Below, in pieces: positions 1-26,864 of a stretch of DNA of 64,000 bases. The notes under the pieces were generated by a model that was given only the letters and a program-made list of their open reading frames with translations, ran no database searches and was not told where the DNA came from. A program made the position numbers and the translations under genes. Within the stretch, counting starts at the first letter, position 1. Each line of letters opens with the position of its first letter. The stretch is from assembly GCA_030528645.1 (NCBI GenBank), contig JAUMYM010000003.1, positions 41,521-105,520 of the forward strand. Direction: 5' to 3'. The DNA comes from Erysipelotrichaceae bacterium (GTDB lineage Bacteria > Bacillota_I > Bacilli_A > Erysipelotrichales > Erysipelotrichaceae).

Positions 1-204
1 ATTATGATGTCTTTAAGGATGAAAGAAGGTTTATCTTTAAATGAGTTTAAACGTATATTTCAAAAGGACGTTATGGATGTATATCAAAAACCATTACAAA
101 AATTATTAGAATTAAAGTATTTAGTTATTGAAAATCAATATTTGAAGTGTCAAAACGATAGTTTTCTTTTTCTGCATGATATTTTGATTGAATTTCTTGA
201 TTAA
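1..204 (+). CDS. 3' end of an upstream gene (partial). The C-terminal region resembles the HemW/HemN-like radical-SAM family C-terminal domain.
   Basis: The open frame runs in from the window edge and stops at 204. The motif LSLNEFKRIF and the tail match the HemW-like C-terminal region only weakly. Confidence 0.35.
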   Translation: MMMSLRMKEGLSLNEFKRIFQKDVMDVYQKPLQKLLELKYLVIENQYLKCQNDSFLFLHDILIEFLD

Positions 205-304
205 TTTTACGATAAGTGCTATTATGATATAGCTTTTAATCTAAGTTTTAGGAATTTCCAACCTTTTACTTGGTTTATTAGGTCAATATTTAGGAGGAAA
301 CAAT

Positions 305-571
305 ATGTTAACAAAAGCTGAAAAAACAGCCATCATCAATGAATACGCAAGAGGTACAAATGATACTGGTTCAGTAGAAGTACAAGTTGCTGTATTAACT
401 GCTCAAATCAACCGTTTAACGGAACACTTAAAAGAACATAAGAAAGACTATCATTCAACACGTGGTTTAATGAAAATGGTAGGACGTCGTAAAAATTTCT
501 TAGCATATTTACGTGATAAAGATGTAAATAGATACCGTGATTTAGTTCAAAGACTAGGATTAAGAAAATAG
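305..571 (+). CDS. rpsO: 30S ribosomal protein S15
   Basis: An 88-aa product with a conserved S15 sequence ([18 protein letters not shown]..). A GGAGG ribosome-binding site lies 7 nt upstream. Confidence 0.95.
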
Positions 572-574
572 TAG

Positions 575-597
575 AAATGAGCATTTGCTCATTTTTT
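575..597 (+). terminator. Rho-independent terminator of rpsO
   Basis: The hairpin aatgagc-attt-gctcatt is followed by TTTTTT. Confidence 0.6.
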
Positions 598-670
598 ATT
601 TAATAGAATCAAATATATTATATAGATTTACAATTCATACTATTAAGAGTATATTATAGATATAGTAGAG

Positions 671-1276
671 GTGGAAATGGTACAAGTACTGAAAGCAGAT
701 GTAAAAGATAGTATTGTAAAAGCAGCCAAGAAAGAAATATTAAAAAATGGGTTTGATAAGTTTCGTATGCGTAATATTGCAGATGGAGCTTCGATGACGG
801 TAGGCAATTTATATCGATATTATAAGAATAAAGATGAACTACTAAAACATATTTTAGAGGATGCTTATCATTTAATTAACACAGTGTTAAAACGATATAA
901 TATGGAAACCATTGATTTTGAACATAAACAGATAGATGAAAAACTTATTTTATTGAAAGATTTCATTCTAACTGTTAGCTATGATATTTGTAGTTTATGG
1001 CAAAATCATCGATTGGAAATGCAAATTATGATTAACGATGAAACATACGTAAAACGTATTTTAAATTGGACCATCATATTATTAAAAAAGATTAACAATC
1101 ATTTTAGTTGTAATTTAAAGAGTGACTTATATATTCAAATGAGTGCAATTGCGATTTATGAAGGATTGAAATATGCATTCTTTCATGCGGATTCTTATGA
1201 TGAATTAAGAGAAATTTCCCTTTATTATTTAAAAGAGAATTTCTCAAAATTTATGGATGTTAAGGGAGTTCTATGA
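671..1276 (+). CDS. TetR/AcrR-family transcriptional regulator
   Basis: A 201-aa protein with an N-terminal HTH region (FDKFRMRNIADGASMTVGNLYRYYKNKDELL) typical of TetR. Its stop overlaps the start of the ABC gene (ATGA). Confidence 0.8.
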   Translation: MEMVQVLKADVKDSIVKAAKKEILKNGFDKFRMRNIADGASMTVGNLYRYYKNKDELLKHILEDAYHLINTVLKRYNMETIDFEHKQIDEKLILLKDFILTVSYDICSLWQNHRLEMQIMINDETYVKRILNWTIILLKKINNHFSCNLKSDLYIQMSAIAIYEGLKYAFFHADSYDELREISLYYLKENFSKFMDVKGVL

Positions 1277-1974
1277 GTTTTATTGAATTTAAACAAGTTA
1301 AAAAACATTATCGTAATGGAGAAGTAGATATTTGTGCATTAGAGGATATCTCTTTTTCTATTGAAAAGGGTGAATTGGTTATTATCGCAGGAGCTAGTGG
1401 TGCCGGTAAAAGTACAATTTTAAATATACTTGGGGGTATGGATAATGTTACTTCTGGTAGTGTAATTGTTGATCAGCAAGACATATCAAATAAATCTGAC
1501 TTTGAACTTACAAAATATCGTCGTTATGATATTGGTTTTGTGTTTCAGTTTTATAATTTAGTTGGGAATTTAACAGCTAAAGAGAATGTTGAATTAGCTT
1601 GCCAGCTTTCTAAAGATAGTTTAGATATTGATGATGTTTTACAACGTGTACAACTTTCAATGCGTAAAGCACATTTTCCAAGTCAACTATCCGGGGGAGA
1701 ACAACAACGTGTGGCCATTGCCAGAGCTTTAGCGAAGAATCCTAAATTGTTGTTATGTGATGAACCTACCGGAGCTTTGGATTATCAAACCGGGAAGGCT
1801 ATTTTAAAATTGTTACAAGAAACTTGTCGTAAATATAATATGACTGTTGTGATTATTACTCATAATTTGGCTTTATGTCCAATTGCAGATAAAGTTATTA
1901 AAGTAAAGAGTGGGCGTATTGAATCCGTAGTGAAAAACAATGAACCAATATCAATAGATGATATTGAGTGGTAG
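1273..1974 (+). CDS. ABC transporter ATP-binding protein, MacB/FtsE/LolD-type
   Basis: Walker A ([16 protein letters not shown]), signature ([15 protein letters not shown]) and Walker B ([12 protein letters not shown]) motifs are present. Confidence 0.9.
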
Positions 1975-1975
1975 T

Positions 1976-4900
1976 ATGAAAAAAACCATCTTGAACAACA
2001 CCATTCGTACAATTGTAAAAACAAAATCGCGTTTTTTGTCGATTCTTTTTATTGTGCTTATAGGTGTTAGTTTTTATAGTGGAATACATATGACAAGCTT
2101 TATTATGAGGCATTCAGTCGATGTTTACTATAAAGAAAATAATATGATGGACTATCAAGTTGTATCGAATTATGGACTTGTAAACGAAGATATACAAGCC
2201 TTGAATACCATAGAAGGTTTACATGTATTGCCTGGCTATAGTGTGGATACGCATATTGTTAAGCACCAACAACATATTCCAAGCAAAATAATCAGTATAG
2301 ATATTCATAAACAAACAGAAGCGATCAATCGATTAAGTGTGGTACAAGGACGTTTGCCTAAAAATGCAAATGAAATTGTTTTATTAGATAGTGTATTAAA
2401 AGATGGAATATTTCAACTAGAGGATGAGCTATATTTACCAGAAGATTCATTTTATCAAACTGCTTATCAAGTAGTTGGTTTTGTCAGATCACCAGAGTAT
2501 ATTTCCAAAGTCAAAGGTAAAAATAGTGATGGATTAGATATTGAAGTCATCGGATATATTGATCATTCAAATTTCAAAAGTGATGTCTATCATTTTGCAA
2601 ATCTAATTGTTAATGGCAGTAAACAGTACAATAGTTTTGATAGTGCTTATTTTAATTTTCTAAAACCTTATACAAATCAGTTAAAAGAACTTGGCTATCA
2701 ACAAGCTGAAAGTAGAAAAGAAGAAATTGTTGCAAAGGCAAATGAAACATTAAAGAATGCCAAAGAGGAATATGAAGCACAAAAGAAAACTTATACTGAA
2801 GAAATAGAAAAAGCCAAACAAAAAATTGAAGATGCTAAGCGTGAGATTTTATTAAATGAATCTAAGGTAGAAGCTGGTAAACTTGTATTGGAAAGTACAA
2901 CGCAAGCATCCTTGCTTCAAATCGAATTTTTTGAAAAACAGGTTGTAGAATTACAAGAACAATGGAATGTCTATGAAAGTAATTTTAAACAACAAAATAG
3001 TGAAGTATTAAAACAAAAAGAACGCTTGAACAATGAAAATAAACAACTTGCAGAGCGTTTAACGGAATTAGAGCCTAAGTATAATGAGGTCCAGTTAAAA
3101 ATAGATACAGTAAAAAAAGAGATGGATTCTATTAATGTTCAAATTCAACAACTTAATCAACAATTAAACGATTCCTCTTTGAGTGAAGAAGAAAAAGCTA
3201 CATTAAGATTACAACTATTGGATTTAAATGGAGAGCTTGCAACAAAGTCGGTAGAACTTACAACCCTTCAATTAGACAATCGTTATATGGAGTATCAACA
3301 AATACAACTACAGATTCAAACAAATCTACAAACCATAAAGTTAATTGATGATGGATTAAAAAGTGCTGATACAACCTTAGCAAAGCTACAAGAGCAACTT
3401 GAAGTAGCAAAAGCAAAAGTCGATAAAGCCAAAGAAGATCTTGAAACAAAAAAGGTAGAAGGAGAAAAACAACTGGCAAGCGCTAGGGCCTCTATTGAGC
3501 ATGCAAAAAAAGAATTGGCAAAAGCGCAAGGTGAAGTATCAAAGAATGAAATCAATGGACAAGAACAGTTAGATTTTGCTCTTGATCAAATTACCTTAGC
3601 AGAAGAAAAGATTAAGGCGATTGAAGATGTAACATGGTTTATTTTAGATCGTAGCAAACAATATAGCTATAAAGATTATGAAAGCGCAACTATTCGTATG
3701 GAGAAAATAGCAATGATTTTTCCGGTGTTTTTCTTCTTAATTGCCGCTTTAGTTACCTTAACAACCATGACTCGTCTTATCGAAGAATCAAGATTAGAAA
3801 TTGGGACATTAAAGTCATTAGGGTTCGATTTTAAAACCATTGCCTTTAAATATATGTTTTATGGTTTATCGGCTACTTGTATTGGTTCGATAGTAGGTTT
3901 AATATTAGGTGTTTTTTCCATTCCTAGTGTAATTTATCATTCGTGGAAACTAGAGTATTTATTACCAAACATTCAATATACGATTGATCTAAAAATTATT
4001 TTTATTACGGTCTTTTTATCTATTACGGTGATTTTCCTAACCATTCTTTTATCAATTTATAAAGAATTAATTGAAAAACCGGCGAATCTTTTAAGAGCGA
4101 AACAAGCAGTCAAAGCAAAAACCATCCTTTTAGAACGTATGCCATTTATTTGGAATCGTTTAAGCTTTATTTCAAAGGTAACGATGCGTAATTTAGCACG
4201 TTACAAGAAAAAAGTGATTATGACACTTATTGGTGTTTCAGGGTGTACATCTCTTTTAGTTTGTGGTTTTGGTATTAAAGATAGTATACAAGACATCACG
4301 AAATTGCAATTTCAAGAAATTTATCAATACGATGGGACCGTAACTTTAAAAAATGAATTAACACGAAGTGAAAAACAAACGGTTATACAGTCCATTAAAA
4401 ATATCAAAGGTGTAAAAGACGTTACATTTGTCTCGATGTTCAATGGGAAAGTGAATAATGAAGAAGTAGATGTAATGATAGGTTATGAAGATCAAATAGA
4501 TACGTTCATTCATTTTCGTGACCGTATCACACATCAAACCATTGCATCTTCTGAACCGGGCATTGTATTAAGTGAAAAACTCGCTAAAAAATTAAATGTA
4601 AAGAAACATGATATGGTTACCTTAACAAATAAAGATCAAATTACAAAAGAATTTACTGTTGTTGGTATTGCGGAACATTATGTAGGTCATTTTGCATATA
4701 TTAATCCTCATAGTTATCAGGAGCAATATCGCATGACCATTCATTACAATACTATTTTTGTTAAGGGTCAACAAGAGGAAGTAGTCGATTCCATTAGTGC
4801 TTTACCGGAAGTGTTACATGTAAATTTTTATAATCGTACCATTGAAAATTTTAATAATATGATTCAAAGTTTAAACATTGTAGTGCTTGTTTTAATCGTA

Positions 4901-5272
4901 TCTTCAGCAGCATTAGCCTTTGTTGTATTATATAACTTAACCAATGTAAATATTGCTGAACGTATACGTGAAATCGCAACCATCAAAGTTTTAGGTTTTT
5001 ACAATAAAGAAGTATATAGCTATATATTTAATGAAAATTTAATTCTTGCCCTAGTATCTTCTGCAATAGGGATAATTGTTGGGAAATATCTTCATCAAAC
5101 AATTATGCTTACTGTTGAGTTGGAACAAGTGATGTTTGGAAGAACCATTGCGCCTACAAGTTATATTTTGAGTGTGGCTTTAACAATATGTTTTACTTTT
5201 TTTGTTAATTTAGCTATGAAAAAAAGACTACGTAGTATCGATATGGTAGAATCACTAAAATCGGTAGAATAA
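1976..5272 (+). CDS. ABC transporter permease with tandem FtsX/MacB-type modules and a roughly 320-aa coiled-coil ectodomain
   Basis: The 1,098-aa product has TM1, an extracytoplasmic domain, a long heptad-rich K/E/Q-rich stretch (about 2675..3640) and then two FtsX-like four-helix TM bundles. The alternative start at 1958 overlaps the ATPase gene. Confidence 0.8.
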   Translation: MKKTILNNTIRTIVKTKSRFLSILFIVLIGVSFYSGIHMTSFIMRHSVDVYYKENNMMDYQVVSNYGLVNEDIQALNTIEGLHVLPGYSVDTHIVKHQQHIPSKIISIDIHKQTEAINRLSVVQGRLPKNANEIVLLDSVLKDGIFQLEDELYLPEDSFYQTAYQVVGFVRSPEYISKVKGKNSDGLDIEVIGYIDHSNFKSDVYHFANLIVNGSKQYNSFDSAYFNFLKPYTNQLKELGYQQAESRKEEIVAKANETLKNAKEEYEAQKKTYTEEIEKAKQKIEDAKREILLNESKVEAGKLVLESTTQASLLQIEFFEKQVVELQEQWNVYESNFKQQNSEVLKQKERLNNENKQLAERLTELEPKYNEVQLKIDTVKKEMDSINVQIQQLNQQLNDSSLSEEEKATLRLQLLDLNGELATKSVELTTLQLDNRYMEYQQIQLQIQTNLQTIKLIDDGLKSADTTLAKLQEQLEVAKAKVDKAKEDLETKKVEGEKQLASARASIEHAKKELAKAQGEVSKNEINGQEQLDFALDQITLAEEKIKAIEDVTWFILDRSKQYSYKDYESATIRMEKIAMIFPVFFFLIAALVTLTTMTRLIEESRLEIGTLKSLGFDFKTIAFKYMFYGLSATCIGSIVGLILGVFSIPSVIYHSWKLEYLLPNIQYTIDLKIIFITVFLSITVIFLTILLSIYKELIEKPANLLRAKQAVKAKTILLERMPFIWNRLSFISKVTMRNLARYKKKVIMTLIGVSGCTSLLVCGFGIKDSIQDITKLQFQEIYQYDGTVTLKNELTRSEKQTVIQSIKNIKGVKDVTFVSMFNGKVNNEEVDVMIGYEDQIDTFIHFRDRITHQTIASSEPGIVLSEKLAKKLNVKKHDMVTLTNKDQITKEFTVVGIAEHYVGHFAYINPHSYQEQYRMTIHYNTIFVKGQQEEVVDSISALPEVLHVNFYNRTIENFNNMIQSLNIVVLVLIVSSAALAFVVLYNLTNVNIAERIREIATIKVLGFYNKEVYSYIFNENLILALVSSAIGIIVGKYLHQTIMLTVELEQVMFGRTIAPTSYILSVALTICFTFFVNLAMKKRLRSIDMVESLKSVE

Positions 5273-5536
5273 GCTTTAAGTTGTAGTGTATTTCAAACCA
5301 TAATTTTAAACAATAGAAAATGTGTTTGATTGTAAATTTTGACGAACCTAAATTTATAAAGAATAAATGAAAAAACATAACATTGAAATCAATGAATAAG
5401 ATACTGTTACAACATTCTAGTATGTATAAGATAAAATTGTAAGTGGGATAGTTAATTAAGAAATTTTAAATAAAAAAGAAATTAACAAAGTATTATATAG
5501 AGTGGTTATAAAATTAAGGTTACTTAATAGAACGGA

Positions 5537-5626
5537 ATGCATCGTTTACTCTTTCAAAATTTTAAAAATAGAAATAATTTGGTAATGTCTATTATTTTAT
5601 TATATCTACAATTCTATTTATTTTAA
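5537..5626 (+). other. Possible 29-aa small hydrophobic ORF in the adhesin leader (MHRLLFQNFKNRNNLVMSIILLYLQFYLF)
   Basis: It runs from an ATG to a TAA. The ribosome-binding site (aacgga) is weak and the region is AT-rich, so this could be a chance ORF. Confidence 0.15.
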
Positions 5627-5888
5627 TTGCGGTATGAAAGAAACAATCAAATAAAATTTAACACTTGATTATTTTTAAAAAAATGTTTAAAAATGACTAA
5701 TAATGTGAAAAAAATGTTCTAGTCACTTTTTGTTGAAAATGAATAGTAAATGAATAAATATGCATAATTTTATGTTAGAATACGAAGTTGAATAAATGTA
5801 CTAAATGATTTTATAGTATAAATAAACATTCGTTTTTTAATCAGTAAAAATATAATTAGGAAACTTATTCAAATAAAAGAGGTAAAGT

Positions 5889-8800
5889 ATGTTTAAAAAG
5901 ATTTTTTTAATAGCAATGTTTTTAATCGCATCTATTGCCTATAGATCGATTAGTTTTGCACAAACAGATTCAACTTCAGAAGTAGCGGTAAGGCAAGAAG
6001 CTCCTTTAACTGTGGAGACAGAAACATCGGCGGATAAGGAAACTCAACCAGAAGAAGCTACAGTTACTGAAACAGCAGAAACTTCAGTTGTTGCAGAAGA
6101 AACGGTTGATGCCAATGTTGCCTCTGTTGATGAAGCAGAAGCAAATTTAGATGCAGGTATTTTACCTGCAACGTTAAACGCAACATCAAAACAGTTTGTG
6201 TTTTCAACAAATTTAAATCAACTTATTTCGAATGTTGAAATAAGTGGATTAGTTCAAGATGGACAAGGAAATTATGTTGTAGAACCACATAAAGAATATT
6301 CTATTGACTTATCATTTAGAGAAACTGAAACATTACAGTTTGATATGGGTGATACAGACAAGGAGTTTGTCTATACATTACCAAGTGGATTGGAAGGCAT
6401 TACTTCACAACCAACGAATTTTACCATTAATATCGTCGACCAAAATGGTCCGGCAAGTATTACGGGAAATCAATTTACAGTTGAAAATGGGCAAGTAAAA
6501 GTTCGTTTTAATGTGAATGATCCAAATTATGCTCGTTTAAAATTATTACCAAACGTAGCGTTTGCATTAAGCATTAAAGCTAGCTTTGATGGTACACAAA
6601 CTCAAATTGATTTTGGTAATAATGTTTTATTGAAATTACAATATGAAAACAATGCAAGCTTAGAAATTACAAAATTAGGGAAACAACGTAAGGTTGGGTT
6701 ACCAACAATTGATTATGTAGTGACAGTGAAAACAAAAGGTATTAACCATAATGTGGTGATTAGTGATGCCATTACAGGAACAGCGATTTCACTAAATAAA
6801 GATGTAGTTGTTGAATCAAGCCTAAATGGTGTGTTATCACCTACAATCACTTATAATGAAACAACAGGTGTAAACAAAGGATTTCAGTTCACACTTCCAA
6901 GAACATTAAATAATGAAATTATAACAGTTAAATATTCCGCAGAAGCAGATTTTAGTAAGATTATTGAAAAAGGTAATGACGAACAAACATCCAATACTGC
7001 GATTGCAAAAAGTGATGAAGTAGCACAGGTGGAAGCTTTCCATACATTAAGAAACAACATTGAGACTCTATTGATTGTAAAAACTCATAAAGCTATTCAA
7101 AAGAATCCAACAAATCCTTCTATATTTACCGTTCCTTGGACTATTACAGTAAATGAAAATAAATTAATTGATATGAGTGGAAGAGTTATTGAGGATATTT
7201 TCCGTGCTAGTAGTCAAGATAAGGCGAAATTTACTGGTGATGGCATAGTTATTAAGGTTAGTAAAAAAGATGGAAGTAGTGAAACACGCAATTTAAAATG
7301 GAATGAGAATGGTCTGGTACCTATTAAAAATCAAGACGACAATAATATCGTTGGTTTTAGGTATACAATTCCTGCTACAGATGGATTTTCATCTTATACT
7401 ATAGAAGCAAATTCAGAACTGGATAGTAGTAAGTCGTATGTCAGACTAGTTGTTCAAAATCACGCGAAAATTCTAAACTTAAAGGGAGCCACTGGGCAGG
7501 TTACCATCAATCTTACTCCGGGTGTTGGTCAAGATTTATTAACAGCTAAAAAAGAAGCTGTAAGTGTAAACAGTCAAGAGATTGAATGGAAGATTTCATT
7601 ATCTATTTCAAGGAATGGTTATCCAAGATTAGTTGTTTATGATGATAACAGTAAACGTACGATTGTGGGAAAAACATATAAAGATAAATATATTGCTGAT
7701 TCATTGAAAATAGAAGGATTATATCCTGAAGAGACGTTCAATTTTTTCTTAGACGATGCGGATACAACAGAAGCAAATTCTTTTTCAATTGAGTTTTTTC
7801 AAGATCAAGGAAAAGCTACAAAGGGATTATTACCTAGTAAAGATAATCAAAGTCGTAATTTAATTATCACGTATAAAACAAGGGTTAACCAAGAGCTTTT
7901 AAGAATTGCACACGATCAAGGGTATACAGATACAAATGCCATTCACTTTAACAATATGTCAGCTCGTGTAACATTTGATGATTATGTTGCTGCAAGTAGA
8001 ACTGTAACTCCAAAGTTACAAACTATAGAAAAGAAATACACAGTAACAGATACAGCAACAATAGCGGGAGAAGCATATCCGGTATATAAATATGAAATTG
8101 TATTATCAAATCCAACAAATGAAACAGAAACCATTTTAGATGCCTTTGATGTGAATTATTTGAAATATTACGATGTAAATGGAGTGGTAATTAAAGGTGG
8201 ACCGACAGCGGAAGAACAAACAGTTGTTGGTGGAAATGCAACCGGTGAAGCAACGGTTGATGGTATGAAAATTAATATCCATGAGTTTCCAAAAAATGCC
8301 GGAAAATTATATCCATTCTATAAAGTAGAATATTCATTAATTGTAAAAGATAAAGCGGCTTTAGATGCGTTAAATGCCTTAGCGATTAACGCGCCGGAAG
8401 GATATCCATTAACAAATACAGCAACATGGAATGGATTAACAAGCCAAGTAACAGAAGCGAAACATACACATTTTCCATACGTTGATAAAAAGCTAGACTT
8501 AAATCCAAGTTCAGCAAATGATTATATTGCCGAGTTTTCAATTGTAGTAAATAAATTTGGGCAAGACTTAATTCCAAATGCCAATGCTTTAAGTATATCT
8601 GATACTTTATCAGATAGCTTACGTTTCATCCCGGAATCAGTGGTATATGAACCAGCAGTAAACGCAACTTACAATTATGAAAACAACGTTTTAACATTCA
8701 ATGATTTACCGGATAATCAAAAGATAACAATTAAGTATAAAGCAAAAGTATTAGGAAAAGGACTTGTAAACTTTACAAATACAGCAAAATTCTCAAACTT

Positions 8801-10544
8801 TGAATCAAAGATTGTAAATAATGTAAATATTACTTACACAGGTTTAGGAACGGGAAGTAATCCAAGTATTACATTATTTAAAGTGGATGATATTGATAAT
8901 ACAAAACCGGTACAAGGCGTTGTATTCCAATTATTCTATGTCAATGATGCAGGAGTAGATGTTGCCGTAACTGATAAGAATAATAACAATGTAACCTTTA
9001 CAACAGGCGTAGATGGAAAGGTATTGGTGGTAGGAGATTCAGTCAATCTTGGATGGGCACTATGGAGTGATGGAAGAACCTATAAACTAAGAGAAATCGC
9101 AAGACCAAGTTGGTATTTAGCCAAAGGAGAAGATGTTACATTTAAGTTTAAAGATATTCCGGTAGCTGCAGATGAGTATTCTGTAGTAGGAGAAACGTTA
9201 ATGGTACAAAACAGTCGTGTAAAGACAACGGTAACTGCGACAAAGACATGGGTGAATGGACCGGCAAGCGATCATGTTTCAGTGCCTATGGAATTAACAA
9301 GAAGCAGTGCGACAGTAGCGAAAGAAGTTGTAAATGTAATGCCGGAAATTACAGGAACAGGACCATTTACATATACATGGAAAGATCTACCAAAAACAGA
9401 TACATTAGGGAATAACTATACGTATGAAGTAAAAGAACAAGGTGAAGTAAATAGTGTTTATACAACTGCAGGTGGAAATAGCTATGCAGTAAGTCAAGTA
9501 GGCAATAACATTACAAATACGTATCAAGCTGCCATGACAAGCTTTACGGCAACAAAGGTATGGGAAAATGGACCTGCAAATAGACCAACGATTATGTTAC
9601 AGTTAAAACGAAACGGAACTAATTTTGGTCAACCGGTAGCCCTAGTAAATCAAACGACAAAGACATGGGATAACTTACCAAAGAGTGATGATCAAGGTGT
9701 AGATTATGTCTATAGTGTTGATGAAGTAGGAACACCAACAAACTATAGAAAAGAGCTTGTAAACAATACAACGATTAAGAATACGTATGTGATACCAAAT
9801 ACAACGGTAAAAGCAACAAAGGTATGGGTGAATGGACCTGTAACAGACCATAGCGCTGTTGATATTGAATTGTATCGCAATATTTTAGGACAACCAGAAC
9901 AGTTGGTAAATGTAGCACCAGTACTTTCAGGAACAGGACCATTTACATATACATGGAATAATCTTGAACAAACAGATATACAAGGGAATGAATACATTTA
10001 TACAGTAAAAGAGAAAGGTGTAGTCAACAATGAGGTTGTGATTAATGGTAATACGTATGTTGTAAGTCAAGTAGGTAATACCATTACCAACACATATCGA
10101 AGTGCAGAGATTAGTTTTACAGGTACAAAGGTATGGGAAAATGGACCAACCAATAGACCAAGTATACAGTTACAGTTAAAGCAAAATGGAGTGAACCATT
10201 TAGCACCGGTAACATTAGCGAATGGAACATTAAGTTATACATGGACTAAGTTACCAAAAACAGATCAACAAGGAGTAGACTATGTCTATAGTATTGATGA
10301 AGTCGCTGTACCAGCTAATTATCGTAAGACCATTGTCGATGAACAAACGATTAAGAATATCTATGATCCGGTTGTAATAGTCCCAAGTGGAGGAGCGGAT
10401 GAAGAAGTTGAAAGTGTATCACATAGTGTGAAGATACCAAAAACAGGTGATACAACGAATACAACGTTATATGTTGTCTTTGCTGTAGCGGCATCAGCTG
10501 GTTTAGCTTATGTAGTTCTTAAAAGAAAAAAGAATCGTGATTAA
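5889..10544 (+). CDS. Cell-wall-anchored surface adhesin (signal peptide, Cna-B-type repeats, IPKTG sorting signal), paralog 1
   Basis: It has an N-terminal signal peptide (MFKKIFLIAMFLIASIAYRSISFA). Four Cna-B-like repeats carry TKVWxNGPxxRP / TKTWVNGP motifs. The C-terminus has KIPKTGD followed by a hydrophobic helix and KRKKNRD. The ribosome-binding site is aaagagg. Confidence 0.85.
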   Translation: MFKKIFLIAMFLIASIAYRSISFAQTDSTSEVAVRQEAPLTVETETSADKETQPEEATVTETAETSVVAEETVDANVASVDEAEANLDAGILPATLNATSKQFVFSTNLNQLISNVEISGLVQDGQGNYVVEPHKEYSIDLSFRETETLQFDMGDTDKEFVYTLPSGLEGITSQPTNFTINIVDQNGPASITGNQFTVENGQVKVRFNVNDPNYARLKLLPNVAFALSIKASFDGTQTQIDFGNNVLLKLQYENNASLEITKLGKQRKVGLPTIDYVVTVKTKGINHNVVISDAITGTAISLNKDVVVESSLNGVLSPTITYNETTGVNKGFQFTLPRTLNNEIITVKYSAEADFSKIIEKGNDEQTSNTAIAKSDEVAQVEAFHTLRNNIETLLIVKTHKAIQKNPTNPSIFTVPWTITVNENKLIDMSGRVIEDIFRASSQDKAKFTGDGIVIKVSKKDGSSETRNLKWNENGLVPIKNQDDNNIVGFRYTIPATDGFSSYTIEANSELDSSKSYVRLVVQNHAKILNLKGATGQVTINLTPGVGQDLLTAKKEAVSVNSQEIEWKISLSISRNGYPRLVVYDDNSKRTIVGKTYKDKYIADSLKIEGLYPEETFNFFLDDADTTEANSFSIEFFQDQGKATKGLLPSKDNQSRNLIITYKTRVNQELLRIAHDQGYTDTNAIHFNNMSARVTFDDYVAASRTVTPKLQTIEKKYTVTDTATIAGEAYPVYKYEIVLSNPTNETETILDAFDVNYLKYYDVNGVVIKGGPTAEEQTVVGGNATGEATVDGMKINIHEFPKNAGKLYPFYKVEYSLIVKDKAALDALNALAINAPEGYPLTNTATWNGLTSQVTEAKHTHFPYVDKKLDLNPSSANDYIAEFSIVVNKFGQDLIPNANALSISDTLSDSLRFIPESVVYEPAVNATYNYENNVLTFNDLPDNQKITIKYKAKVLGKGLVNFTNTAKFSNFESKIVNNVNITYTGLGTGSNPSITLFKVDDIDNTKPVQGVVFQLFYVNDAGVDVAVTDKNNNNVTFTTGVDGKVLVVGDSVNLGWALWSDGRTYKLREIARPSWYLAKGEDVTFKFKDIPVAADEYSVVGETLMVQNSRVKTTVTATKTWVNGPASDHVSVPMELTRSSATVAKEVVNVMPEITGTGPFTYTWKDLPKTDTLGNNYTYEVKEQGEVNSVYTTAGGNSYAVSQVGNNITNTYQAAMTSFTATKVWENGPANRPTIMLQLKRNGTNFGQPVALVNQTTKTWDNLPKSDDQGVDYVYSVDEVGTPTNYRKELVNNTTIKNTYVIPNTTVKATKVWVNGPVTDHSAVDIELYRNILGQPEQLVNVAPVLSGTGPFTYTWNNLEQTDIQGNEYIYTVKEKGVVNNEVVINGNTYVVSQVGNTITNTYRSAEISFTGTKVWENGPTNRPSIQLQLKQNGVNHLAPVTLANGTLSYTWTKLPKTDQQGVDYVYSIDEVAVPANYRKTIVDEQTIKNIYDPVVIVPSGGADEEVESVSHSVKIPKTGDTTNTTLYVVFAVAASAGLAYVVLKRKKNRD
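8125..10544 (+). repeat. Copy A of a 2.42 kb near-identical direct repeat, forming the 3' halves of the tandem adhesin genes
   Basis: It is identical to 13142..15561 at an offset of 5,017 bp, with one mismatch seen (8176 T versus 13193 C). Identical antisense ORFs appear in the ORF track at this offset. Confidence 0.85.
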
Positions 10545-10546
10545 CA

Positions 10547-10580
10547 AAAAATGACTAGTAATTAAAAACTAGTCATTTTT
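10547..10580 (+). terminator. Rho-independent terminator of adhesin paralog 1
   Basis: A 12-bp perfect stem (aaaatgactagt / actagtcatttt) with an 8-nt loop and a trailing T-run. Confidence 0.7.
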
Positions 10581-10806
10581 ATGTGTAAATTGTCAAAAAT
10601 TATGTTATTATATAGAACTGTATCGACTCTTTTTCTGCTTCTTCAATATATTATAATTTGTATGAAACCCATAGAGATGTGATAGAATGAAGGTGTAGAT
10701 ATGCCGTTTATATGAAATCACAATGACAACAGAAAATCTTTAGGTCGATAATATAACTATTTAAAAAAAGTAAAGTAACCATATTACTTAAGGAAAGAGG
10801 TACCAT

Positions 10807-13800
10807 ATGTTTAAAAAGATTTTTTTAATCGCTGTATTTCTGATTGCATCTATTGCATATAGAACTCTTAGTTTTGCAGAAACTGAGAAAACGAATATAA
10901 ATACGGAATCAGAAATTTCTACAAACACAGAAACGGAATCGAAAGATGAAGTTTCAACAACGATAACTGTTGATGAAAATGCAGAAAGTACGCCTGTAGT
11001 AGTTGAAGAAAATAATCAAACAACTACAGAAGAAGTAATTGCTACAGAGACATCGCCTGATGTAACAGGTCCGAATAGTACAAATCCTGAAACGTTACCT
11101 GAATCAAGTGAGCTGATGCCTGAAACAACAGAAGAAGTAAATGAAAAAATGACTTTAAATGCGGAAGCAGTAACAGAAGAAAACTTAGATGAAGGGATTA
11201 TTCCTGCAAATATAAATCCGTTATCAAAACAATTTGTATTTGATACAAACTTAAATCAATTCGTAAGTAACTTGGAGATTTCAGGTTTAGTGCAAGATGA
11301 ACAAGGAAATTATGTTGTGGTTCCATATACAGAATATTCCATTGACTTATCATTTAGAGAAACAGAAACATTGCAACTTGATATGGATGATACAGGCAAG
11401 GAGTTTATCTATACATTGCCAAGTGGATTAGAAGGTATTAATTCACAACCGACGAATTTTACGATTAATATTGTTGACCAAAATGGTTCGGCGAGTATTG
11501 CGGGAAATCAATTTACAGTTGAAAATGGACAAGTAAAAGTTCGTTTCAATGTAAATGATCCAAATTATGCTCGTTTAAAATTATTGCCAAATGTAGCGTT
11601 TACCTTAACAATTAAAGCTAGTTTTGATGGCACACAAACTCAAATTGATTTTGGTAATAATGTTGTGATTAAGTTAAAATTTGAAAACAATGCTAGTTTA
11701 GAGATTACAAAAACCGGTGCGCAACGTGGCGTATCATCAAAAATTGTTGATTATACATTAACGGTAAAATCAAATGGTATCAATGAAAATGTTCAAATTG
11801 AAGATGTTATTTCTGGAACAGCATTAAATCTAGATAAAAATTTATACATTGTATCAAGTGTAAAAGGTGAACTGAAACCAACGATTACCTATAACGAGGC
11901 ATCTGGTGTCAATAAAGGCTTCTCTACTACGATTGATCGTATGATTAGTGGAGAAATAGTAACGATTAAATATACTGCAAATATTGATTTTAATAAAATT
12001 ACAGATATTGGTACCGTTGCACAAACTGCAAATAGAGCAACAGCACAAAGTACACAATCACCTATGGTGGAAGCAAATCATAGCTTATATAAGAGTATTG
12101 CTTATAAAGGGGTTGAAAAAAAGGCTTCACCTCCAGTGACAAATCCTGGTAACTCTAATTTACATCAAGTGAGTTGGGAAATTAAGGTCAATGAAGAAAA
12201 GTTATTTGATATGAGTAACCGAGTGATTATGGATGAGGTTCATTCAACAAGTACAGGTGTTATGCATATCGTTGGTACTGGTATCAAAATGCAAGTCACA
12301 AAACCGGATGGTTCTGTTGAAAACAGAAATTTAGCATGGAGTGACTTAACGGTTATTCGTGATGGTAGTGGACGTATCACTTCTTGGAAGTATAATGTTC
12401 CATCAACGGATGGCGTTTCTAGTTATAAAATTACAGTAGACACTGAGGTAGATAGTTCAAATATTTTTGCTCGTTTAGTTGTAGTGAATAAAGCTAAAAT
12501 TGAAGGTATTAAAGAAACATCAGCTTCTCAAGTATTTACACCTGGAGTTGGACAAGATACCTTAACAGCAAAAAAAGAAGCAGTAAGTGTAAATAGTCAG
12601 GAAATTGAATGGAAGATTACCGTTGATGTAGCAAGTAAAGGTTACCCATCGTTCTTTATTGTAGATGATGTTACACGTATATTATATAAAGGAGTAACTT
12701 ATAAAGACGAATTCCTTAAACCAACATTATTGGTAGAAGGATTGTATCCGGAAGAATCCTATAAATTAAATGAAATCTTTAATGGAGATGCTAATACATT
12801 TACTTTGGTGTTCTACCAAAATCAAGAGCAAACCATTGAAGGATTAAAACCAAGTACAAACAATCAGAAACGTTCCATTGTAATTACTTATAAGGCAAAA
12901 GTAAATCAAGAAATTTTAGCTATTGCTCATGCCAATGGATATGCAGACTATACGGCTGAACACCGTAATAACATCTCAGCACGTGTAACATCGGGAGACT
13001 ATGTTGGTGCGGTTGCAAAAGCATACCCAAAAATTCAAACAATTGAAAAGAGCTATCTATCAATGACACAAGAAAATGTCAATGGTGCTCCTTATCCAGT
13101 CTTTAATTATTCAGTTGTAATTTCTAATGTATCTGGAGATCCAGAAACCATTTTAGATGCCTTTGATGTGAATTATTTGAAATATTACGATGCAAATGGA
13201 GTGGTAATTAAAGGTGGACCGACAGCGGAAGAACAAACAGTTGTTGGTGGAAATGCAACCGGTGAAGCAACGGTTGATGGTATGAAAATTAATATCCATG
13301 AGTTTCCAAAAAATGCCGGAAAATTATATCCATTCTATAAAGTAGAATATTCATTAATTGTAAAAGATAAAGCGGCTTTAGATGCGTTAAATGCCTTAGC
13401 GATTAACGCGCCGGAAGGATATCCATTAACAAATACAGCAACATGGAATGGATTAACAAGCCAAGTAACAGAAGCGAAACATACACATTTTCCATACGTT
13501 GATAAAAAGCTAGACTTAAATCCAAGTTCAGCAAATGATTATATTGCCGAGTTTTCAATTGTAGTAAATAAATTTGGGCAAGACTTAATTCCAAATGCCA
13601 ATGCTTTAAGTATATCTGATACTTTATCAGATAGCTTACGTTTCATCCCGGAATCAGTGGTATATGAACCAGCAGTAAACGCAACTTACAATTATGAAAA
13701 CAACGTTTTAACATTCAATGATTTACCGGATAATCAAAAGATAACAATTAAGTATAAAGCAAAAGTATTAGGAAAAGGACTTGTAAACTTTACAAATACA

Positions 13801-15561
13801 GCAAAATTCTCAAACTTTGAATCAAAGATTGTAAATAATGTAAATATTACTTACACAGGTTTAGGAACGGGAAGTAATCCAAGTATTACATTATTTAAAG
13901 TGGATGATATTGATAATACAAAACCGGTACAAGGCGTTGTATTCCAATTATTCTATGTCAATGATGCAGGAGTAGATGTTGCCGTAACTGATAAGAATAA
14001 TAACAATGTAACCTTTACAACAGGCGTAGATGGAAAGGTATTGGTGGTAGGAGATTCAGTCAATCTTGGATGGGCACTATGGAGTGATGGAAGAACCTAT
14101 AAACTAAGAGAAATCGCAAGACCAAGTTGGTATTTAGCCAAAGGAGAAGATGTTACATTTAAGTTTAAAGATATTCCGGTAGCTGCAGATGAGTATTCTG
14201 TAGTAGGAGAAACGTTAATGGTACAAAACAGTCGTGTAAAGACAACGGTAACTGCGACAAAGACATGGGTGAATGGACCGGCAAGCGATCATGTTTCAGT
14301 GCCTATGGAATTAACAAGAAGCAGTGCGACAGTAGCGAAAGAAGTTGTAAATGTAATGCCGGAAATTACAGGAACAGGACCATTTACATATACATGGAAA
14401 GATCTACCAAAAACAGATACATTAGGGAATAACTATACGTATGAAGTAAAAGAACAAGGTGAAGTAAATAGTGTTTATACAACTGCAGGTGGAAATAGCT
14501 ATGCAGTAAGTCAAGTAGGCAATAACATTACAAATACGTATCAAGCTGCCATGACAAGCTTTACGGCAACAAAGGTATGGGAAAATGGACCTGCAAATAG
14601 ACCAACGATTATGTTACAGTTAAAACGAAACGGAACTAATTTTGGTCAACCGGTAGCCCTAGTAAATCAAACGACAAAGACATGGGATAACTTACCAAAG
14701 AGTGATGATCAAGGTGTAGATTATGTCTATAGTGTTGATGAAGTAGGAACACCAACAAACTATAGAAAAGAGCTTGTAAACAATACAACGATTAAGAATA
14801 CGTATGTGATACCAAATACAACGGTAAAAGCAACAAAGGTATGGGTGAATGGACCTGTAACAGACCATAGCGCTGTTGATATTGAATTGTATCGCAATAT
14901 TTTAGGACAACCAGAACAGTTGGTAAATGTAGCACCAGTACTTTCAGGAACAGGACCATTTACATATACATGGAATAATCTTGAACAAACAGATATACAA
15001 GGGAATGAATACATTTATACAGTAAAAGAGAAAGGTGTAGTCAACAATGAGGTTGTGATTAATGGTAATACGTATGTTGTAAGTCAAGTAGGTAATACCA
15101 TTACCAACACATATCGAAGTGCAGAGATTAGTTTTACAGGTACAAAGGTATGGGAAAATGGACCAACCAATAGACCAAGTATACAGTTACAGTTAAAGCA
15201 AAATGGAGTGAACCATTTAGCACCGGTAACATTAGCGAATGGAACATTAAGTTATACATGGACTAAGTTACCAAAAACAGATCAACAAGGAGTAGACTAT
15301 GTCTATAGTATTGATGAAGTCGCTGTACCAGCTAATTATCGTAAGACCATTGTCGATGAACAAACGATTAAGAATATCTATGATCCGGTTGTAATAGTCC
15401 CAAGTGGAGGAGCGGATGAAGAAGTTGAAAGTGTATCACATAGTGTGAAGATACCAAAAACAGGTGATACAACGAATACAACGTTATATGTTGTCTTTGC
15501 TGTAGCGGCATCAGCTGGTTTAGCTTATGTAGTTCTTAAAAGAAAAAAGAATCGTGATTAA
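10807..15561 (+). CDS. Cell-wall-anchored surface adhesin, paralog 2, with an extra Thr/Glu-rich N-terminal low-complexity stretch
   Basis: The signal peptide is MFKKIFLIAVFLIASIAYRTLSFA. The N-terminal region is about 85% identical to paralog 1, the middle has diverged, and the C-terminal 804 aa are identical, including the IPKTG sorting signal. Confidence 0.85.
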   Translation: MFKKIFLIAVFLIASIAYRTLSFAETEKTNINTESEISTNTETESKDEVSTTITVDENAESTPVVVEENNQTTTEEVIATETSPDVTGPNSTNPETLPESSELMPETTEEVNEKMTLNAEAVTEENLDEGIIPANINPLSKQFVFDTNLNQFVSNLEISGLVQDEQGNYVVVPYTEYSIDLSFRETETLQLDMDDTGKEFIYTLPSGLEGINSQPTNFTINIVDQNGSASIAGNQFTVENGQVKVRFNVNDPNYARLKLLPNVAFTLTIKASFDGTQTQIDFGNNVVIKLKFENNASLEITKTGAQRGVSSKIVDYTLTVKSNGINENVQIEDVISGTALNLDKNLYIVSSVKGELKPTITYNEASGVNKGFSTTIDRMISGEIVTIKYTANIDFNKITDIGTVAQTANRATAQSTQSPMVEANHSLYKSIAYKGVEKKASPPVTNPGNSNLHQVSWEIKVNEEKLFDMSNRVIMDEVHSTSTGVMHIVGTGIKMQVTKPDGSVENRNLAWSDLTVIRDGSGRITSWKYNVPSTDGVSSYKITVDTEVDSSNIFARLVVVNKAKIEGIKETSASQVFTPGVGQDTLTAKKEAVSVNSQEIEWKITVDVASKGYPSFFIVDDVTRILYKGVTYKDEFLKPTLLVEGLYPEESYKLNEIFNGDANTFTLVFYQNQEQTIEGLKPSTNNQKRSIVITYKAKVNQEILAIAHANGYADYTAEHRNNISARVTSGDYVGAVAKAYPKIQTIEKSYLSMTQENVNGAPYPVFNYSVVISNVSGDPETILDAFDVNYLKYYDANGVVIKGGPTAEEQTVVGGNATGEATVDGMKINIHEFPKNAGKLYPFYKVEYSLIVKDKAALDALNALAINAPEGYPLTNTATWNGLTSQVTEAKHTHFPYVDKKLDLNPSSANDYIAEFSIVVNKFGQDLIPNANALSISDTLSDSLRFIPESVVYEPAVNATYNYENNVLTFNDLPDNQKITIKYKAKVLGKGLVNFTNTAKFSNFESKIVNNVNITYTGLGTGSNPSITLFKVDDIDNTKPVQGVVFQLFYVNDAGVDVAVTDKNNNNVTFTTGVDGKVLVVGDSVNLGWALWSDGRTYKLREIARPSWYLAKGEDVTFKFKDIPVAADEYSVVGETLMVQNSRVKTTVTATKTWVNGPASDHVSVPMELTRSSATVAKEVVNVMPEITGTGPFTYTWKDLPKTDTLGNNYTYEVKEQGEVNSVYTTAGGNSYAVSQVGNNITNTYQAAMTSFTATKVWENGPANRPTIMLQLKRNGTNFGQPVALVNQTTKTWDNLPKSDDQGVDYVYSVDEVGTPTNYRKELVNNTTIKNTYVIPNTTVKATKVWVNGPVTDHSAVDIELYRNILGQPEQLVNVAPVLSGTGPFTYTWNNLEQTDIQGNEYIYTVKEKGVVNNEVVINGNTYVVSQVGNTITNTYRSAEISFTGTKVWENGPTNRPSIQLQLKQNGVNHLAPVTLANGTLSYTWTKLPKTDQQGVDYVYSIDEVAVPANYRKTIVDEQTIKNIYDPVVIVPSGGADEEVESVSHSVKIPKTGDTTNTTLYVVFAVAASAGLAYVVLKRKKNRD
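13142..15561 (+). repeat. Copy B of the 2.42 kb near-identical direct repeat
   Basis: See copy A. Divergence resumes immediately after the stop codon. Confidence 0.85.
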
Positions 15562-15568
15562 ATAACAA

Positions 15569-15594
15569 AGAAGGAATAGAGATTCCTTCTTTTA
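15569..15594 (+). terminator. Rho-independent terminator of adhesin paralog 2
   Basis: Stem agaaggaat / attccttct with loop agag and a trailing TTT. Confidence 0.6.
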
Positions 15595-15737
15595 CTATAA
15601 AGGATAAAATTATGCAATGAATCTGGTTTTTCACTGGATAATAACCTTTTGAAATCGATATACTTATCATTTTTGTGATGATAAATATAATATTTATGAT
15701 AAAATAGTTAGAGAGAAAATTAAGAGGAAAATGTAAA

Positions 15738-17933
15738 ATGGCTAAAGAAATTTTTAGTATGGATTTTTATGGGCGTAATTTGACGGTAGAAACAGGCGAA
15801 ATTGCGAAACAAGCTGGGGGATCAGTTTTAGTAAGATATGAAGATACGGTAGTGTTATCAACAGCTACAGCTTCAAAACAAGCAAAAGACACTGATTTTT
15901 TCCCATTAACAGTTACGTTTGAAGAAAAACTATATTCTGCAGGAAAAATTCCTGGTGGATTTTTAAGAAGAGAAGGTAGACCTTCTGAACACGCTACTTT
16001 AACGGCACGTTTGATTGACCGACCAATTCGTCCGTTATTTGCGGAAGGTTTTCGTAATGAAGTGCAAGTAGTCAATACGGTACTTTCAACAAATACAGAT
16101 GTATCACCTGAAATGGCAGCTATGTTTGGTGCTTCTCTTGCATTATGTGTAAGTAATATTCCATTCAATGGACCGATTGCTGGTGTTATTGTCGGTAGAG
16201 TGGATGGAGAATTTATTATTAACCCAACAGTAGAGCAACAAGAAAAAAGTGATATTCACTTAGCAGTAGCTGGTACAAAAGATGCGATTAACATGGTTGA
16301 AGCCGGTGCAAAAGAAGTAAGTGAAGAAGTTATGTTGGATGCTTTATTTTTTGGACATGATGCGATTAAACAATTATGTGCATTTCAAGAAGAAATTATG
16401 TTGAAGTGTGCAAAAGAAAAAATGGATGTAGTTTTATATGAAATCAATCCAATGATTAAAGCACTGGTAGATGAAAAGGGTAAACAACGTATTGAAGAAG
16501 CAGTATCGATCAAAGGTAAATTGGAACGTTATGGTAAAATTGATGAATTAACGGAAGAGATGTGCTTATTAGTTGAAGCAATGACTTTTGAAAATGATAA
16601 AGCAAAAGAAAAAGCAGTAAAACAATGTAAAGAATATTGTACAGAAATTGAAGCAAATGAAGTGCGTCGTTTAATTTCTGTGGATAAAATTAGACCGGAT
16701 GGTCGTAAAGTGGATGAAATTCGTCCGTTAAACTCGCAAATAGATTTATTGCCTCGTGTACATGGTTCAGCATTGTTTACACGTGGAGAAACACAAGTGT
16801 TATCGGTAACCACATTAGGTGCGTTGGGTGATAATCAAATTATTGATGATTTAACAGATGTAGAAGAAAAACGTTTCATGCATCACTATAATTTCCCACC
16901 ATATTCCGTTGGTGAAGTAGGAAGAATTGGCTCACCAGGTCGTCGTGAAATTGGTCATGGTGCTTTAGGTGAACGTGCTCTTGCGCAAGTATTGCCAAGT
17001 GAAGAGGAGTTTCCATATGCAATACGTACGGTTGCTGAAGTATTAGAATCAAATGGTTCTTCTTCGCAAGCTTCGATTTGTGCTGGTACAATGTCTTTAA
17101 TGGCAGCAGGTGTACCAATTAAAGCGCCGGTAGCAGGGATTGCGATGGGGCTTGTTACATATGGAGAACACTATACAGTGCTAAGTGATATTCAAGGTAT
17201 GGAAGATCACTTTGGGGATATGGATTTTAAAGTGGCAGGGACTAATGCAGGTATTACTGCATTACAAATGGATATTAAAATTGAAGGTATTCGTCGTGAT
17301 ATTTTAGTGGAAGCCTTGGCTCAAGCGAAAAAAGGACGTCAAGAAATCATGGCAAATATGATGGAATGTATTGATGAACCACGCAAAGAAGTAAGTAAAT
17401 ACGCTCCAAAGATGGTTACACTTACAATTCCTGTTGATAAGATTCGTGAAGTCATTGGTACTGGTGGAAAAATGATTAACCAAATCATTGAAGAATGTAA
17501 TCAAGTTAAAATTGATATTGAAGATGATGGACGTTGTGTTATTTATCATAATGATATGGACGCATTAAATAAGGCAAAGGCGATGATTGAAGCAATTATT
17601 AAAGAAGCTAAAGTTGGTGAAATTTATGAATCCAAAGTGGTTCGTATTGAAAAATTTGGAGCTTTTGTTGAATTGTTTACAGGAACAGATGCGTTACTTC
17701 ATGTATCAAAAATTAGTCATCAACGTGTAGATAAGCCGGAAAGTGTATTAAAACTTGGTGATGTTGTACGTGTTATTGTGACCGAAATTGATGATAAAGG
17801 ACGTGTAAATGTATCTGCCAAAGATTTAATTGAAAAACCAGAAACTCTTCAAGAAGAAAGTGATAAAAAAGCAGAAGAAAAACCGGTTGAGAAAAAATCA
17901 GGTGAAAAGCGTTTCTTTAAGAAAAAAGATTAA
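15738..17933 (+). CDS. pnp: Polyribonucleotide nucleotidyltransferase (PNPase)
   Basis: A 731-aa protein with two RNase PH domains, a KH domain and a C-terminal S1 domain. It is strongly conserved (e.g. [17 protein letters not shown]). Confidence 0.95.
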
Positions 17934-17935
17934 AT

Positions 17936-18571
17936 ATGAGAATGCGTAAAAAAAAGTGGGCACTTCCTTTTTTACAAGAACACAGTGAAGTGGCTTTACA
18001 AAATCCAGTACATTTAAAAGGTAACTGGAATACTGTTTCCACTCAAAGACCAATACATTTAGAAATAGGTGTAGGTAAAGGCGGTTATATCAATCAAATG
18101 GCTTTGCAATATCCTGATGCCTTTTGGGTTGGTATTGAAAAAGATGTAAATGTTGTATGTATTGCCGTTAAGAATTTTATACGTCAAGAAAATGAGAATG
18201 AACTTTTTATAACAAATGATGCTAGTGAATTAGAACAATGGTTTGATAAAGAAGAAATTGATGTTATACATTTAAATTTCTCAGATCCATGGCCTAAAAA
18301 AGGCTATCGTAAGCGTCGTTTGTCGAGTGATGGTTTTGTTAGTAAATACCATGATATTTTAAAAGAAAATGGTAAAATTATTTTAAAAACAGATAATAAA
18401 ATTTTATTTGAATTTTCAGTTGTTGAAATACTTAAGTCAAACTTTACACTAGAGGAATTAAGTGTGGATTTTCGTAGAGAAGAACACCAAGAAGATGCAA
18501 TTACAGAATATGAAGCGAAATTTATGGCGTTAAATCAACCGATTTATCGTGCGATTTTCAAGAAGATTTAA
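17936..18571 (+). CDS. trmB: tRNA (guanine46-N7)-methyltransferase
   Basis: A 211-aa protein with the SAM-binding motif IEIGVGKGGYI and NFSDPWPKK. Confidence 0.85.
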   Translation: MRMRKKKWALPFLQEHSEVALQNPVHLKGNWNTVSTQRPIHLEIGVGKGGYINQMALQYPDAFWVGIEKDVNVVCIAVKNFIRQENENELFITNDASELEQWFDKEEIDVIHLNFSDPWPKKGYRKRRLSSDGFVSKYHDILKENGKIILKTDNKILFEFSVVEILKSNFTLEELSVDFRREEHQEDAITEYEAKFMALNQPIYRAIFKKI

Positions 18572-18572
18572 A

Positions 18573-18600
18573 AATAGACACGTTGTGTCTATTTTTTTCA
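18573..18600 (+). terminator. Rho-independent terminator after trmB
   Basis: aaatagacac-gtt-gtgtctattt followed by TTTTT. Confidence 0.65.
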
Positions 18601-18672
18601 AGGGAAAAGTATTGGTAAATATCTATGATTTCATAGATGAATATTGTATAATTTTTAAGAAAGGTAAAGATT

Positions 18673-19716: not shown

Positions 19717-19749
19717 TACAGATTGCGACTTATTTTATAGGTAAAAGGA

Positions 19750-25803: not shown

Positions 25804-25887
25804 GGATTTCTTAGGTTCTGGTAATATTATACTTTTCAAATGTGCAATAAAATGTTATCATTTTATAGATTGAAAAGAGGTTTAGCA

Positions 25888-26850: not shown

Positions 26851-26864
26851 AAAGAGGGTTAAGA

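Follow-up and report, generated by a model that had tools for sequence, protein, structure and literature searches.

In Escherichia coli the genes for ribosomal protein S15 (rpsO) and polynucleotide phosphorylase (pnp) form an operon, and the Bacillaceae carry the corresponding rpsO–pnpA pair. The same two genes, in the same orientation and order, are found in a 64,000-nucleotide stretch of contig JAUMYM010000003.1 of an Erysipelotrichaceae bacterium (assembly GCA_030528645.1, positions 41,521 to 105,520), hereafter called the window. In contrast to the E. coli and Bacillaceae pairs, they are separated by 15.2 kb, which contain three terminator-like hairpins and four transcription units, and pnp has a separate promoter-like site in front of it, so that the two are neither adjacent nor apparently co-transcribed. 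The gap is filled by a TetR regulator gene, an ATP-binding cassette (ABC) ATPase gene and a permease gene, together referred to as the triad, followed by two tandem adhesin genes. An accessory block that breaks a conserved gene order is a hallmark of genomic islands and integrative elements; unlike these, the block in the window has no integrase, transposase, tRNA target or flanking repeats, its composition is native, and its parts are of mixed phyletic age. The gap is therefore probably a layered, chromosomally native accessory region and not a single mobile insertion, and the split is best explained if genes were added step by step, in particular lineages, at a junction with little stability in the family as a whole. 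A literature search on rpsO and pnp in Erysipelotrichaceae found nothing specific.

The surroundings of pnp were compared by a scan anchored on polynucleotide phosphorylase (PNPase), in which the flanks of 80 loci (L numbers denote loci or contigs), up to 10 kb long, were searched by tblastn with the window proteins. The order fmt–lepA–hemN–rpsO–pnp forms a backbone in many Erysipelotrichaceae. The window PNPase is 98% identical to that of the isolate Erysipelotrichaceae bacterium OH741_COT-311, and the window species is a canine-oral, dog-mouth-related member of the family. The nearest other species, L006 and L007 (PNPase identity of 80% and 78%, respectively), fall in the window clade of a neighbour-joining tree of PNPase. 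L006 has the order hemN–rpsO–TetR–ABC–permease–pnp without an adhesin gene; at the adhesin position, in the 1.6-kb spacer between its permease gene and pnp, it carries a gene for desulfoferrodoxin and, on the opposite strand, part of an ISL3-family transposase gene (both within 8384–9442). L007 has TetR, ABC and permease genes followed by pnp after 55 bp, also without an adhesin gene; its upstream context differs, with no rpsO within 10 kb. L030, in the same clade, has ecf/truA genes upstream of pnp. Judging from the spacer of L006, the permease–pnp junction is a site of turnover. The adhesin genes themselves are present in the isolate OH741_COT-311 and in population contigs of the window species, and no adhesin homologue was found by tblastn within 10 kb of pnp in about 30 other relatives. 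The first-pass annotation of this DNA had described what looked like a surface and export module inserted into a conserved locus and had proposed a comparison of gene order in relatives. The block is indeed a derived accessory interruption of the family backbone, and its rpsO–TetR–ABC–pnp order recurs in L006, but the module is composite, since L006 and L007 have the triad without the adhesins, which are confined to the window lineage and OH741_COT-311.

These observations lead to a probable sequence of events. The ancestral backbone would have been fmt–lepA–hemN–rpsO–pnp, with the 15 kb as a derived interruption. An older layer, the tetR–abcA–permease operon, would already have stood upstream of pnp in the ancestor that the window lineage shares with the two nearest sampled species. 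In a younger layer, found in the window and OH741_COT-311 lineage only, a single gene for a sortase-anchored adhesin with a stalk of Cna_B domains would have come to lie between the permease gene and pnp; this gene would then have been duplicated in tandem, the heads of the two products diverging, perhaps towards differing ligands, while gene conversion or a recent partial duplication may have homogenised the halves that encode stalk and anchor. A sortase gene, whose product is the likely anchoring enzyme, would have been inserted between fmt and lepA in the window species. Since the adhesin genes have their own terminators and pnp appears to have its own promoter, such a split would cost nothing where the rpsO–pnp linkage is already loose.

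Several points weigh against this history. Few relatives between 80% and 98% PNPase identity have been sampled, so that the gain of the adhesins is poorly dated, and it is possible that an ancestral adhesin was present and then lost. No insertion mechanism is visible at the locus. The orthology of the triad in the window, L006 and L007 is read from position and order, the trees and identity matrices being uninformative: the permeases share 34–41% identity and their tree is star-like, and the ATPases share 67–70%, no more than the 62–78% that they share with homologues from other contexts. The triad may conceivably have been acquired independently, or replaced by xenologues, at the same site. 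In L014 (PNPase identity of 71%; 4803–9850) a similar triad lies between hemN and rpsO, leaving rpsO next to pnp, and the permease of this triad clusters with sequences of the Lachnospiraceae type; the triad on the other side of rpsO is likely to reflect a separate event. Finally, consensus polishing of the source assembly may account for part of the perfect 2.4-kb identity between the two adhesin genes.

The closest competing history keeps the whole arrangement ancestral: the ancestor of the clade would have had the order rpsO–TetR–ABC–adhesin–pnp, and the adhesin would have been lost in L006, with an insertion sequence involved, and in L007. Adhesin genes are generally gained and lost fast, and the ISL3 fragment and unrelated gene of L006, lying exactly at the adhesin position, are consistent with turnover there. 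However, the 55-bp gap of L007 contains no remnant, the roughly 30 relatives are devoid of adhesin-like sequence near pnp, and the best external adhesin homologues, in unrelated contexts on contigs of higher GC content, are only 34% identical, making differential loss unlikely in comparison with stepwise accretion.

The looseness of the rpsO–pnp linkage is a property of the order. Among 27 Erysipelotrichales-like loci with enough flanking sequence, rpsO and pnp are adjacent in 10 and apart in 17; in eight of the latter they are split by 1.3–6.5 kb, and in nine the upstream flank lacks rpsO over at least 9 kb. The cargo of the split loci is unrelated, comprising type I ABC exporter pairs, a lipoprotein gene, peptidase T-like genes, an aminotransferase gene with MgtE, and membrane protein genes. 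In other Bacilli, by comparison, the pair is adjacent in 47 of 49 loci, Streptococcus sanguinis (L084) being one of the two exceptions. The expectation that rpsO and pnp are contiguous in most bacteria thus holds for the other Bacilli and not for the Erysipelotrichales, in which separation in the wider family, named by the first-pass annotation as an observation that would speak against an insertion, is what is found. Its more cautious suggestion, that of an old insertion or simply the layout of this lineage, comes closest to the truth.

The composition of the block is native. In this low-GC Erysipelotrichaceae DNA (0.32 over the window), the GC content of the block is 0.324, compared with 0.320 in the rest of the window; the GC content at third codon positions is 0.19–0.22 in the block genes and 0.20 ± 0.03 in the 35 other window genes, and the length-corrected codon-usage divergence of the block lies inside the spread of those 35 genes. 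The compositional skew that had been suggested as a check is thus absent. The open reading frame (ORF) listing and profile scans of 1–22000 contain no integrase, recombinase or transposase, in agreement with the first-pass annotation, which had seen no integrase or insertion-sequence gene, and the stretch downstream of pnp that was checked (17936–36094) is housekeeping. Direct repeats at the block edges, likewise suggested as a check, amount to chance-level AT-rich 8–13-mers common to intergenic regions (repeat search and all-versus-all blastn over five regions). An Rfam scan of 1–20000 at E ≤ 0.1 found no RNA family, tRNA included, although no dedicated tRNA finder was used.

These results bear on the view that the triad and the adhesins entered together as one horizontally acquired surface and export module. 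The 15 kb are indeed all accessory, co-oriented and contiguous, and the adhesins are without close homologues in the flanks of relatives. Against this stand the native composition and codon use, the lack of an integrase, tRNA or direct repeat, and the distribution of the parts, which do not come and go as a single unit among relatives, L006 and L007 having the triad upstream of pnp and no adhesin. Moreover, homologous ABC pairs elsewhere are found in varied chromosomal contexts, always as a permease gene with an adjacent ATPase gene and never beside adhesins, so that nothing ties export to the adhesins functionally. A single island is thus very improbable, and a genomic island or mobile element was rejected as a class for the block, given the missing integrase, tRNA target and flanking repeats, the native composition and the unequal phyletic ages of the parts.

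Gene content was checked by ORF listing and by Pfam and NCBIfam profile scans. The features from the end of hemN to pnp, all but the spacer on the forward strand, are as follows.

4–204, forward strand: 3' end of a hemN-like radical SAM gene (HemN_C, E 1e-9), the conserved left flank of the backbone; the gene is complete in population contigs.
305–571, forward strand: rpsO, ribosomal protein S15 (Ribosomal_S15, E 1e-35).
573–596, forward strand: intrinsic terminator-like hairpin with T-run after rpsO (pattern scan; fold −11.3 kcal/mol, z −3.8).
627–655, forward strand: promoter-like site upstream of tetR, TTTACA-17-TATATT (consensus scan, 10/12 matches).
671–1276, forward strand: TetR-family regulator gene (TetR_N, E 1e-11).
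1273–1974, forward strand: ABC ATPase gene of the MacB/LolD/FtsE/YbbA type (ABC_tran, E 3e-35).
1958–5272, forward strand: gene for a fused, YbbP-like type VII ABC permease as predicted (two FtsX and MacB_PCD; 1104 aa).
5273–5888, no strand: AT-rich non-coding spacer, the left junction of the adhesin layer (GC 0.20, 616 bp).
5889–10544, forward strand: adhesin paralogue 1 (1551 aa; signal peptide, DUF11, SpaA-like, four Cna_B, Gram_pos_anchor, IPKTG).
8177–10544, forward strand: identical tract, copy 1, within adhesin 1 (2,368 bp, exact match to 13194–15561).
10548–10580, forward strand: terminator hairpin after adhesin 1 (−16.1 kcal/mol, z −6.3).
10807–15561, forward strand: adhesin paralogue 2 (1584 aa; same domain types, head diverged from paralogue 1).
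13194–15561, forward strand: identical tract, copy 2, within adhesin 2 (2,368 bp).
15567–15592, forward strand: terminator hairpin after adhesin 2 (−12.0 kcal/mol, z −4.35).
15664–15691, forward strand: promoter-like site upstream of pnp, TTATCA-16-TATAAT (consensus scan).
15738–17933, forward strand: pnp, polynucleotide phosphorylase (RNase_PH twice, KH, S1).

The first-pass description of rpsO with its own terminator, of pnp and of about 15 kb of accessory genes between them was accurate at every coordinate, and the genes it had named, a TetR regulator, a MacB-type ABC exporter and two tandem LPXTG-like adhesins, are all present, the sorting motif being IPKTG. The signals at the right end of the block are conserved in part: the stem arms of the terminator at 15567–15592 are kept in an alignment with OH741_COT-311, with a different loop, and both hexamers of the pnp promoter-like site are kept in OH741_COT-311 and in L005, in which the spacer differs at two positions. 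This site would give pnp its own transcription start. At the left end, the promoter-like site at 627–655 contains a short inverted repeat, ATACT-N6-AGTAT, which is a candidate operator. Directly behind the permease gene no terminator was found, only a weak hairpin at 5694–5725. The spacer at 5273–5888 is unusually long for so compact a region. Six-frame translation of it gave no ORF, pseudogene or mobile-element remnant, and blastn and tblastx comparison of the spacers with those of L006, L007 and L014 found no homology; it may be a promoter or regulatory region of the adhesins.

The adhesins have the architecture of Cna_B stalk adhesins (MSCRAMM-like, such as the B region of Staphylococcus aureus Cna): a signal peptide, DUF11 and SpaA-like domains of the immunoglobulin-like kind, four Cna_B domains, a Gram_pos_anchor domain (E 2e-5) and a sorting signal with a motif, a hydrophobic helix and a basic tail (IPKTG...LKRKKNRD; TIGR01167, 26 bits, cut-off 15.9), as in surface proteins anchored by a sortase. 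They differ from known members in that the motif is IPKTG and not LPXTG, the sole nearby sortase belongs to class B, a search for a collagen-binding Cna A domain gave no match, and the sequence of the head matches nothing in Pfam or the PDB that would name it. For the head (about residues 100–750), relaxed Pfam searching gave no match beyond DUF11 and a sub-threshold GramPos_pilinBB, and the PDB gave no sequence match; a model built from five sequences is all-beta, with a predicted local distance difference test score (pLDDT) of 55.7, too uncertain for a fold search. For adhesin 1, an exact protein match is listed at NCBI under the title 'Cna B-type domain-containing protein [Erysipelotrichaceae bacterium]'. 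A sortase-assembled pilus was rejected: a class C sortase is lacking nearby, E-box-like motifs are absent, and FPKN gave a single loose match.

As in other tandem adhesin paralogues with homogenised repeats, the pair combines a diverged head with an identical stalk. The 5' 2.2 kb of the two genes are 47–93% identical at the DNA level, with one conserved domain at 77–93%, and the heads are 38–90% identical in amino acid sequence; from around position 760 onwards to the C-terminus, the two proteins do not differ. The identical tracts match over all 2,368 bp, and identity stops at the stop codon. This pattern fits a recent gene conversion after an old duplication, or a recent partial duplication of the half encoding stalk and anchor. 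The Cna_B stalk of each protein is in turn an internal duplication (9221–10365 and 14238–15382), with two units of about 575 bp at 72–77% identity.

A gene for a class B sortase, seen in population contigs (L092:1807–2520 and L087:328–1041), separates fmt from lepA some 3.7 kb before the first position of the window, and its product matches TIGR03064 with E 1e-46 and 158.7 bits, above the curated cut-off of 153.75. The interruption is found in the window species only, fmt and lepA being directly adjacent in six relatives, and the sortase gene is parted from the adhesin genes by lepA, hemN, rpsO and the ABC operon. Clostridial class B sortases take (S/P)PXTG-type motifs, so that IPKTG is a plausible substrate. 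This sortase is likely to be the enzyme that anchors the two adhesins.

Independent short-read assemblies bear on whether the block is real. Contigs from about ten samples join hemN–rpsO–TetR–ABC–permease to the 5' end of the adhesin, and four other contigs, from four samples, together with the isolate contig of OH741_COT-311 join the 3' end of the adhesin, the terminator and pnp. Since these contigs span both ends of the block, its placement is no artefact of the window contig, and the arrangement is a real and fixed feature of the species. The three short-read contigs L001, L002 and L004 end 30 nt inside the boundary of the 2,368-bp repeat, which is read as the branch point of a true repeat, provided that k=31 was used in their assembly. 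That a chimeric join or a duplicated collapse produced the block, or its second adhesin gene, is thus the least credible explanation of all: although the window comes from a metagenome-assembled genome contig, an exact repeat of 2.4 kb is difficult to assemble, the junction of the two adhesins (10545–10806) is backed by the window alone, and exact-sequence look-ups of the permease and both adhesins in a contig index gave no match, the independent contigs at either end, the three ends expected of a true repeat and the heads, which differ by 10–50% as in two distinct genes, all argue against it.

The triad is most closely related in design to E. coli YbbAP(-TesA) and to other type VII systems, such as MacB, LolCDE, FtsEX, BceAB and HrtBA, with which it shares a separate ATPase and a single-chain permease of two four-helix FtsX modules and two extracytoplasmic domains. 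For YbbAP–TesA, the extraction of hydrophobic compounds out of the membrane has recently been described (PMC12646458), and MacB-type machines operate by mechanotransmission (PMC5985334). The three reading frames overlap and form one apparent operon behind the promoter-like site at 627–655: the tetR stop overlaps the ATPase start (ATGA), and the ATPase frame (1273–1974) overlaps the start of the permease gene, which population gene calls place at 1976, giving 1098 aa. The regulator matches TetR_N with E 1.4e-11 and 44.5 bits (cut-off 24) and efflux-repressor models only below threshold. The ATPase matches the LolD, DevA, FtsE, MacB and YbbA models with E values of 1e-50 to 1e-62, all under the equivalog cut-offs (YbbA: 172.7 bits, cut-off 336).

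The permease contains two FtsX stretches and MacB_PCD by Pfam. An AlphaFold2 model from 26 homologues (pLDDT 79.9) has two FtsX modules, with eight transmembrane helices in all, and two extracytoplasmic domains, the first of which carries an antiparallel helical hairpin of residues 229–403 and 410–553 (about 175 and 144, in total about 325 residues). The best Foldseek match is E. coli YbbAP (9ge6_A; E 7e-19; target-normalised TM score 0.61), followed by LolCDE, BceAB, HrtBA, MacB and FtsEX, over a range of E 1e-5 to 7e-19. In agreement with this, the large extracytoplasmic domain between the first and second transmembrane helices of the FtsX modules and the adjoining gene for a MacB/LolD/FtsE-type ATPase are those of type VII ABC systems, and the protein is, by its predicted fold, a YbbP-like fused (duplicated) type VII ABC permease. 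It differs from the described systems in several respects: sequence identity is only about 9–15%, the helical hairpin has no counterpart in YbbP, the locus has no TesA-like hydrolase, membrane-fusion protein or two-component system and is paired with a TetR gene, and the host is monoderm. A strict YbbAP–TesA equivalog was rejected, since there is no hydrolase gene in the locus, no YbbP equivalog match was obtained and the YbbA score lies under its cut-off; a tripartite MacAB-like pump was rejected in the absence of a MacA/YknX-type membrane-fusion gene between 599 and 5888. By analogy, the triad would be a TetR-controlled extrusion or extraction machine that expels or extracts a hydrophobic or antimicrobial compound at the outer face of the membrane by ATP-driven mechanotransmission, with TetR repressing the operon until it binds a ligand.

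The permease had been called unusual, a description that does not hold: homologues over the full length, about 1100 aa each and 32–36% identical, number more than 100 and include the 'FtsX-like permease family protein' of Dorea formicigenerans, and the long-hairpin family is common in gut and oral Firmicutes. A metagenome scan with the permease gave one distant match only (35%). A 3.7-kb Logan contig from another sample (P0006) encodes a permease 78% identical to that of the window over its full length; the divergence is uniform along the protein, with no sign of localised diversifying selection, and the contig, too short for gene context, points to a further related species carrying the ABC system. 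Among the papers searched on coiled-coil type VII ABC permeases in Firmicutes, nothing specific to the family of about 1100 aa with the long hairpin was found. A more speculative proposal is that the permease represents an uncharacterised, widespread Firmicute branch of the type VII systems, whose hairpin (roughly 20–25 nm if extended) would cross the thick monoderm wall as a mechanotransmitter or fused 'adaptor' instead of serving a simple drug pump; we regard this as doubtful, and still weaker is the variant in which sortase, ABC machine and adhesins, each of them acquired around one backbone, would cooperate as a surface module.

Downstream of pnp, the window continues with trmB, a znuA-like gene, polA, mutM, coaE, dnaB/dnaI-like genes, pfkA, pyk, rnj, def and ftsW, and beyond ftsW with membrane-lipid and glycosyltransferase genes. 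In a metagenome-assembled genome of another member of the Erysipelotrichaceae (L008:4000–7000), Cas-like ORFs are located a few kb upstream of pnp and are followed by a stretch in which the same peptide is repeated in translations of both strands; judged from these ORF translations alone, the stretch is read as a candidate CRISPR array.

As an anchor for synteny the rpsO–pnp pair, a textbook case of adjacency in E. coli and Bacillaceae, is weak among Erysipelotrichales, and an apparent 15-kb insertion at such a junction can be the sum of separate, fully ameliorated events. Annotation and island-calling pipelines should not treat the gap as a mobile element. All components of the block are of known kinds, and the split is real but ordinary, a case of lineage-specific erosion of a locus; the family of long-hairpin, YbbP-like permeases is the only feature of wider curiosity and may merit separate study. 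For the canine-oral species itself, the two adhesins, which also break its short-read assemblies, are candidate host-attachment factors.

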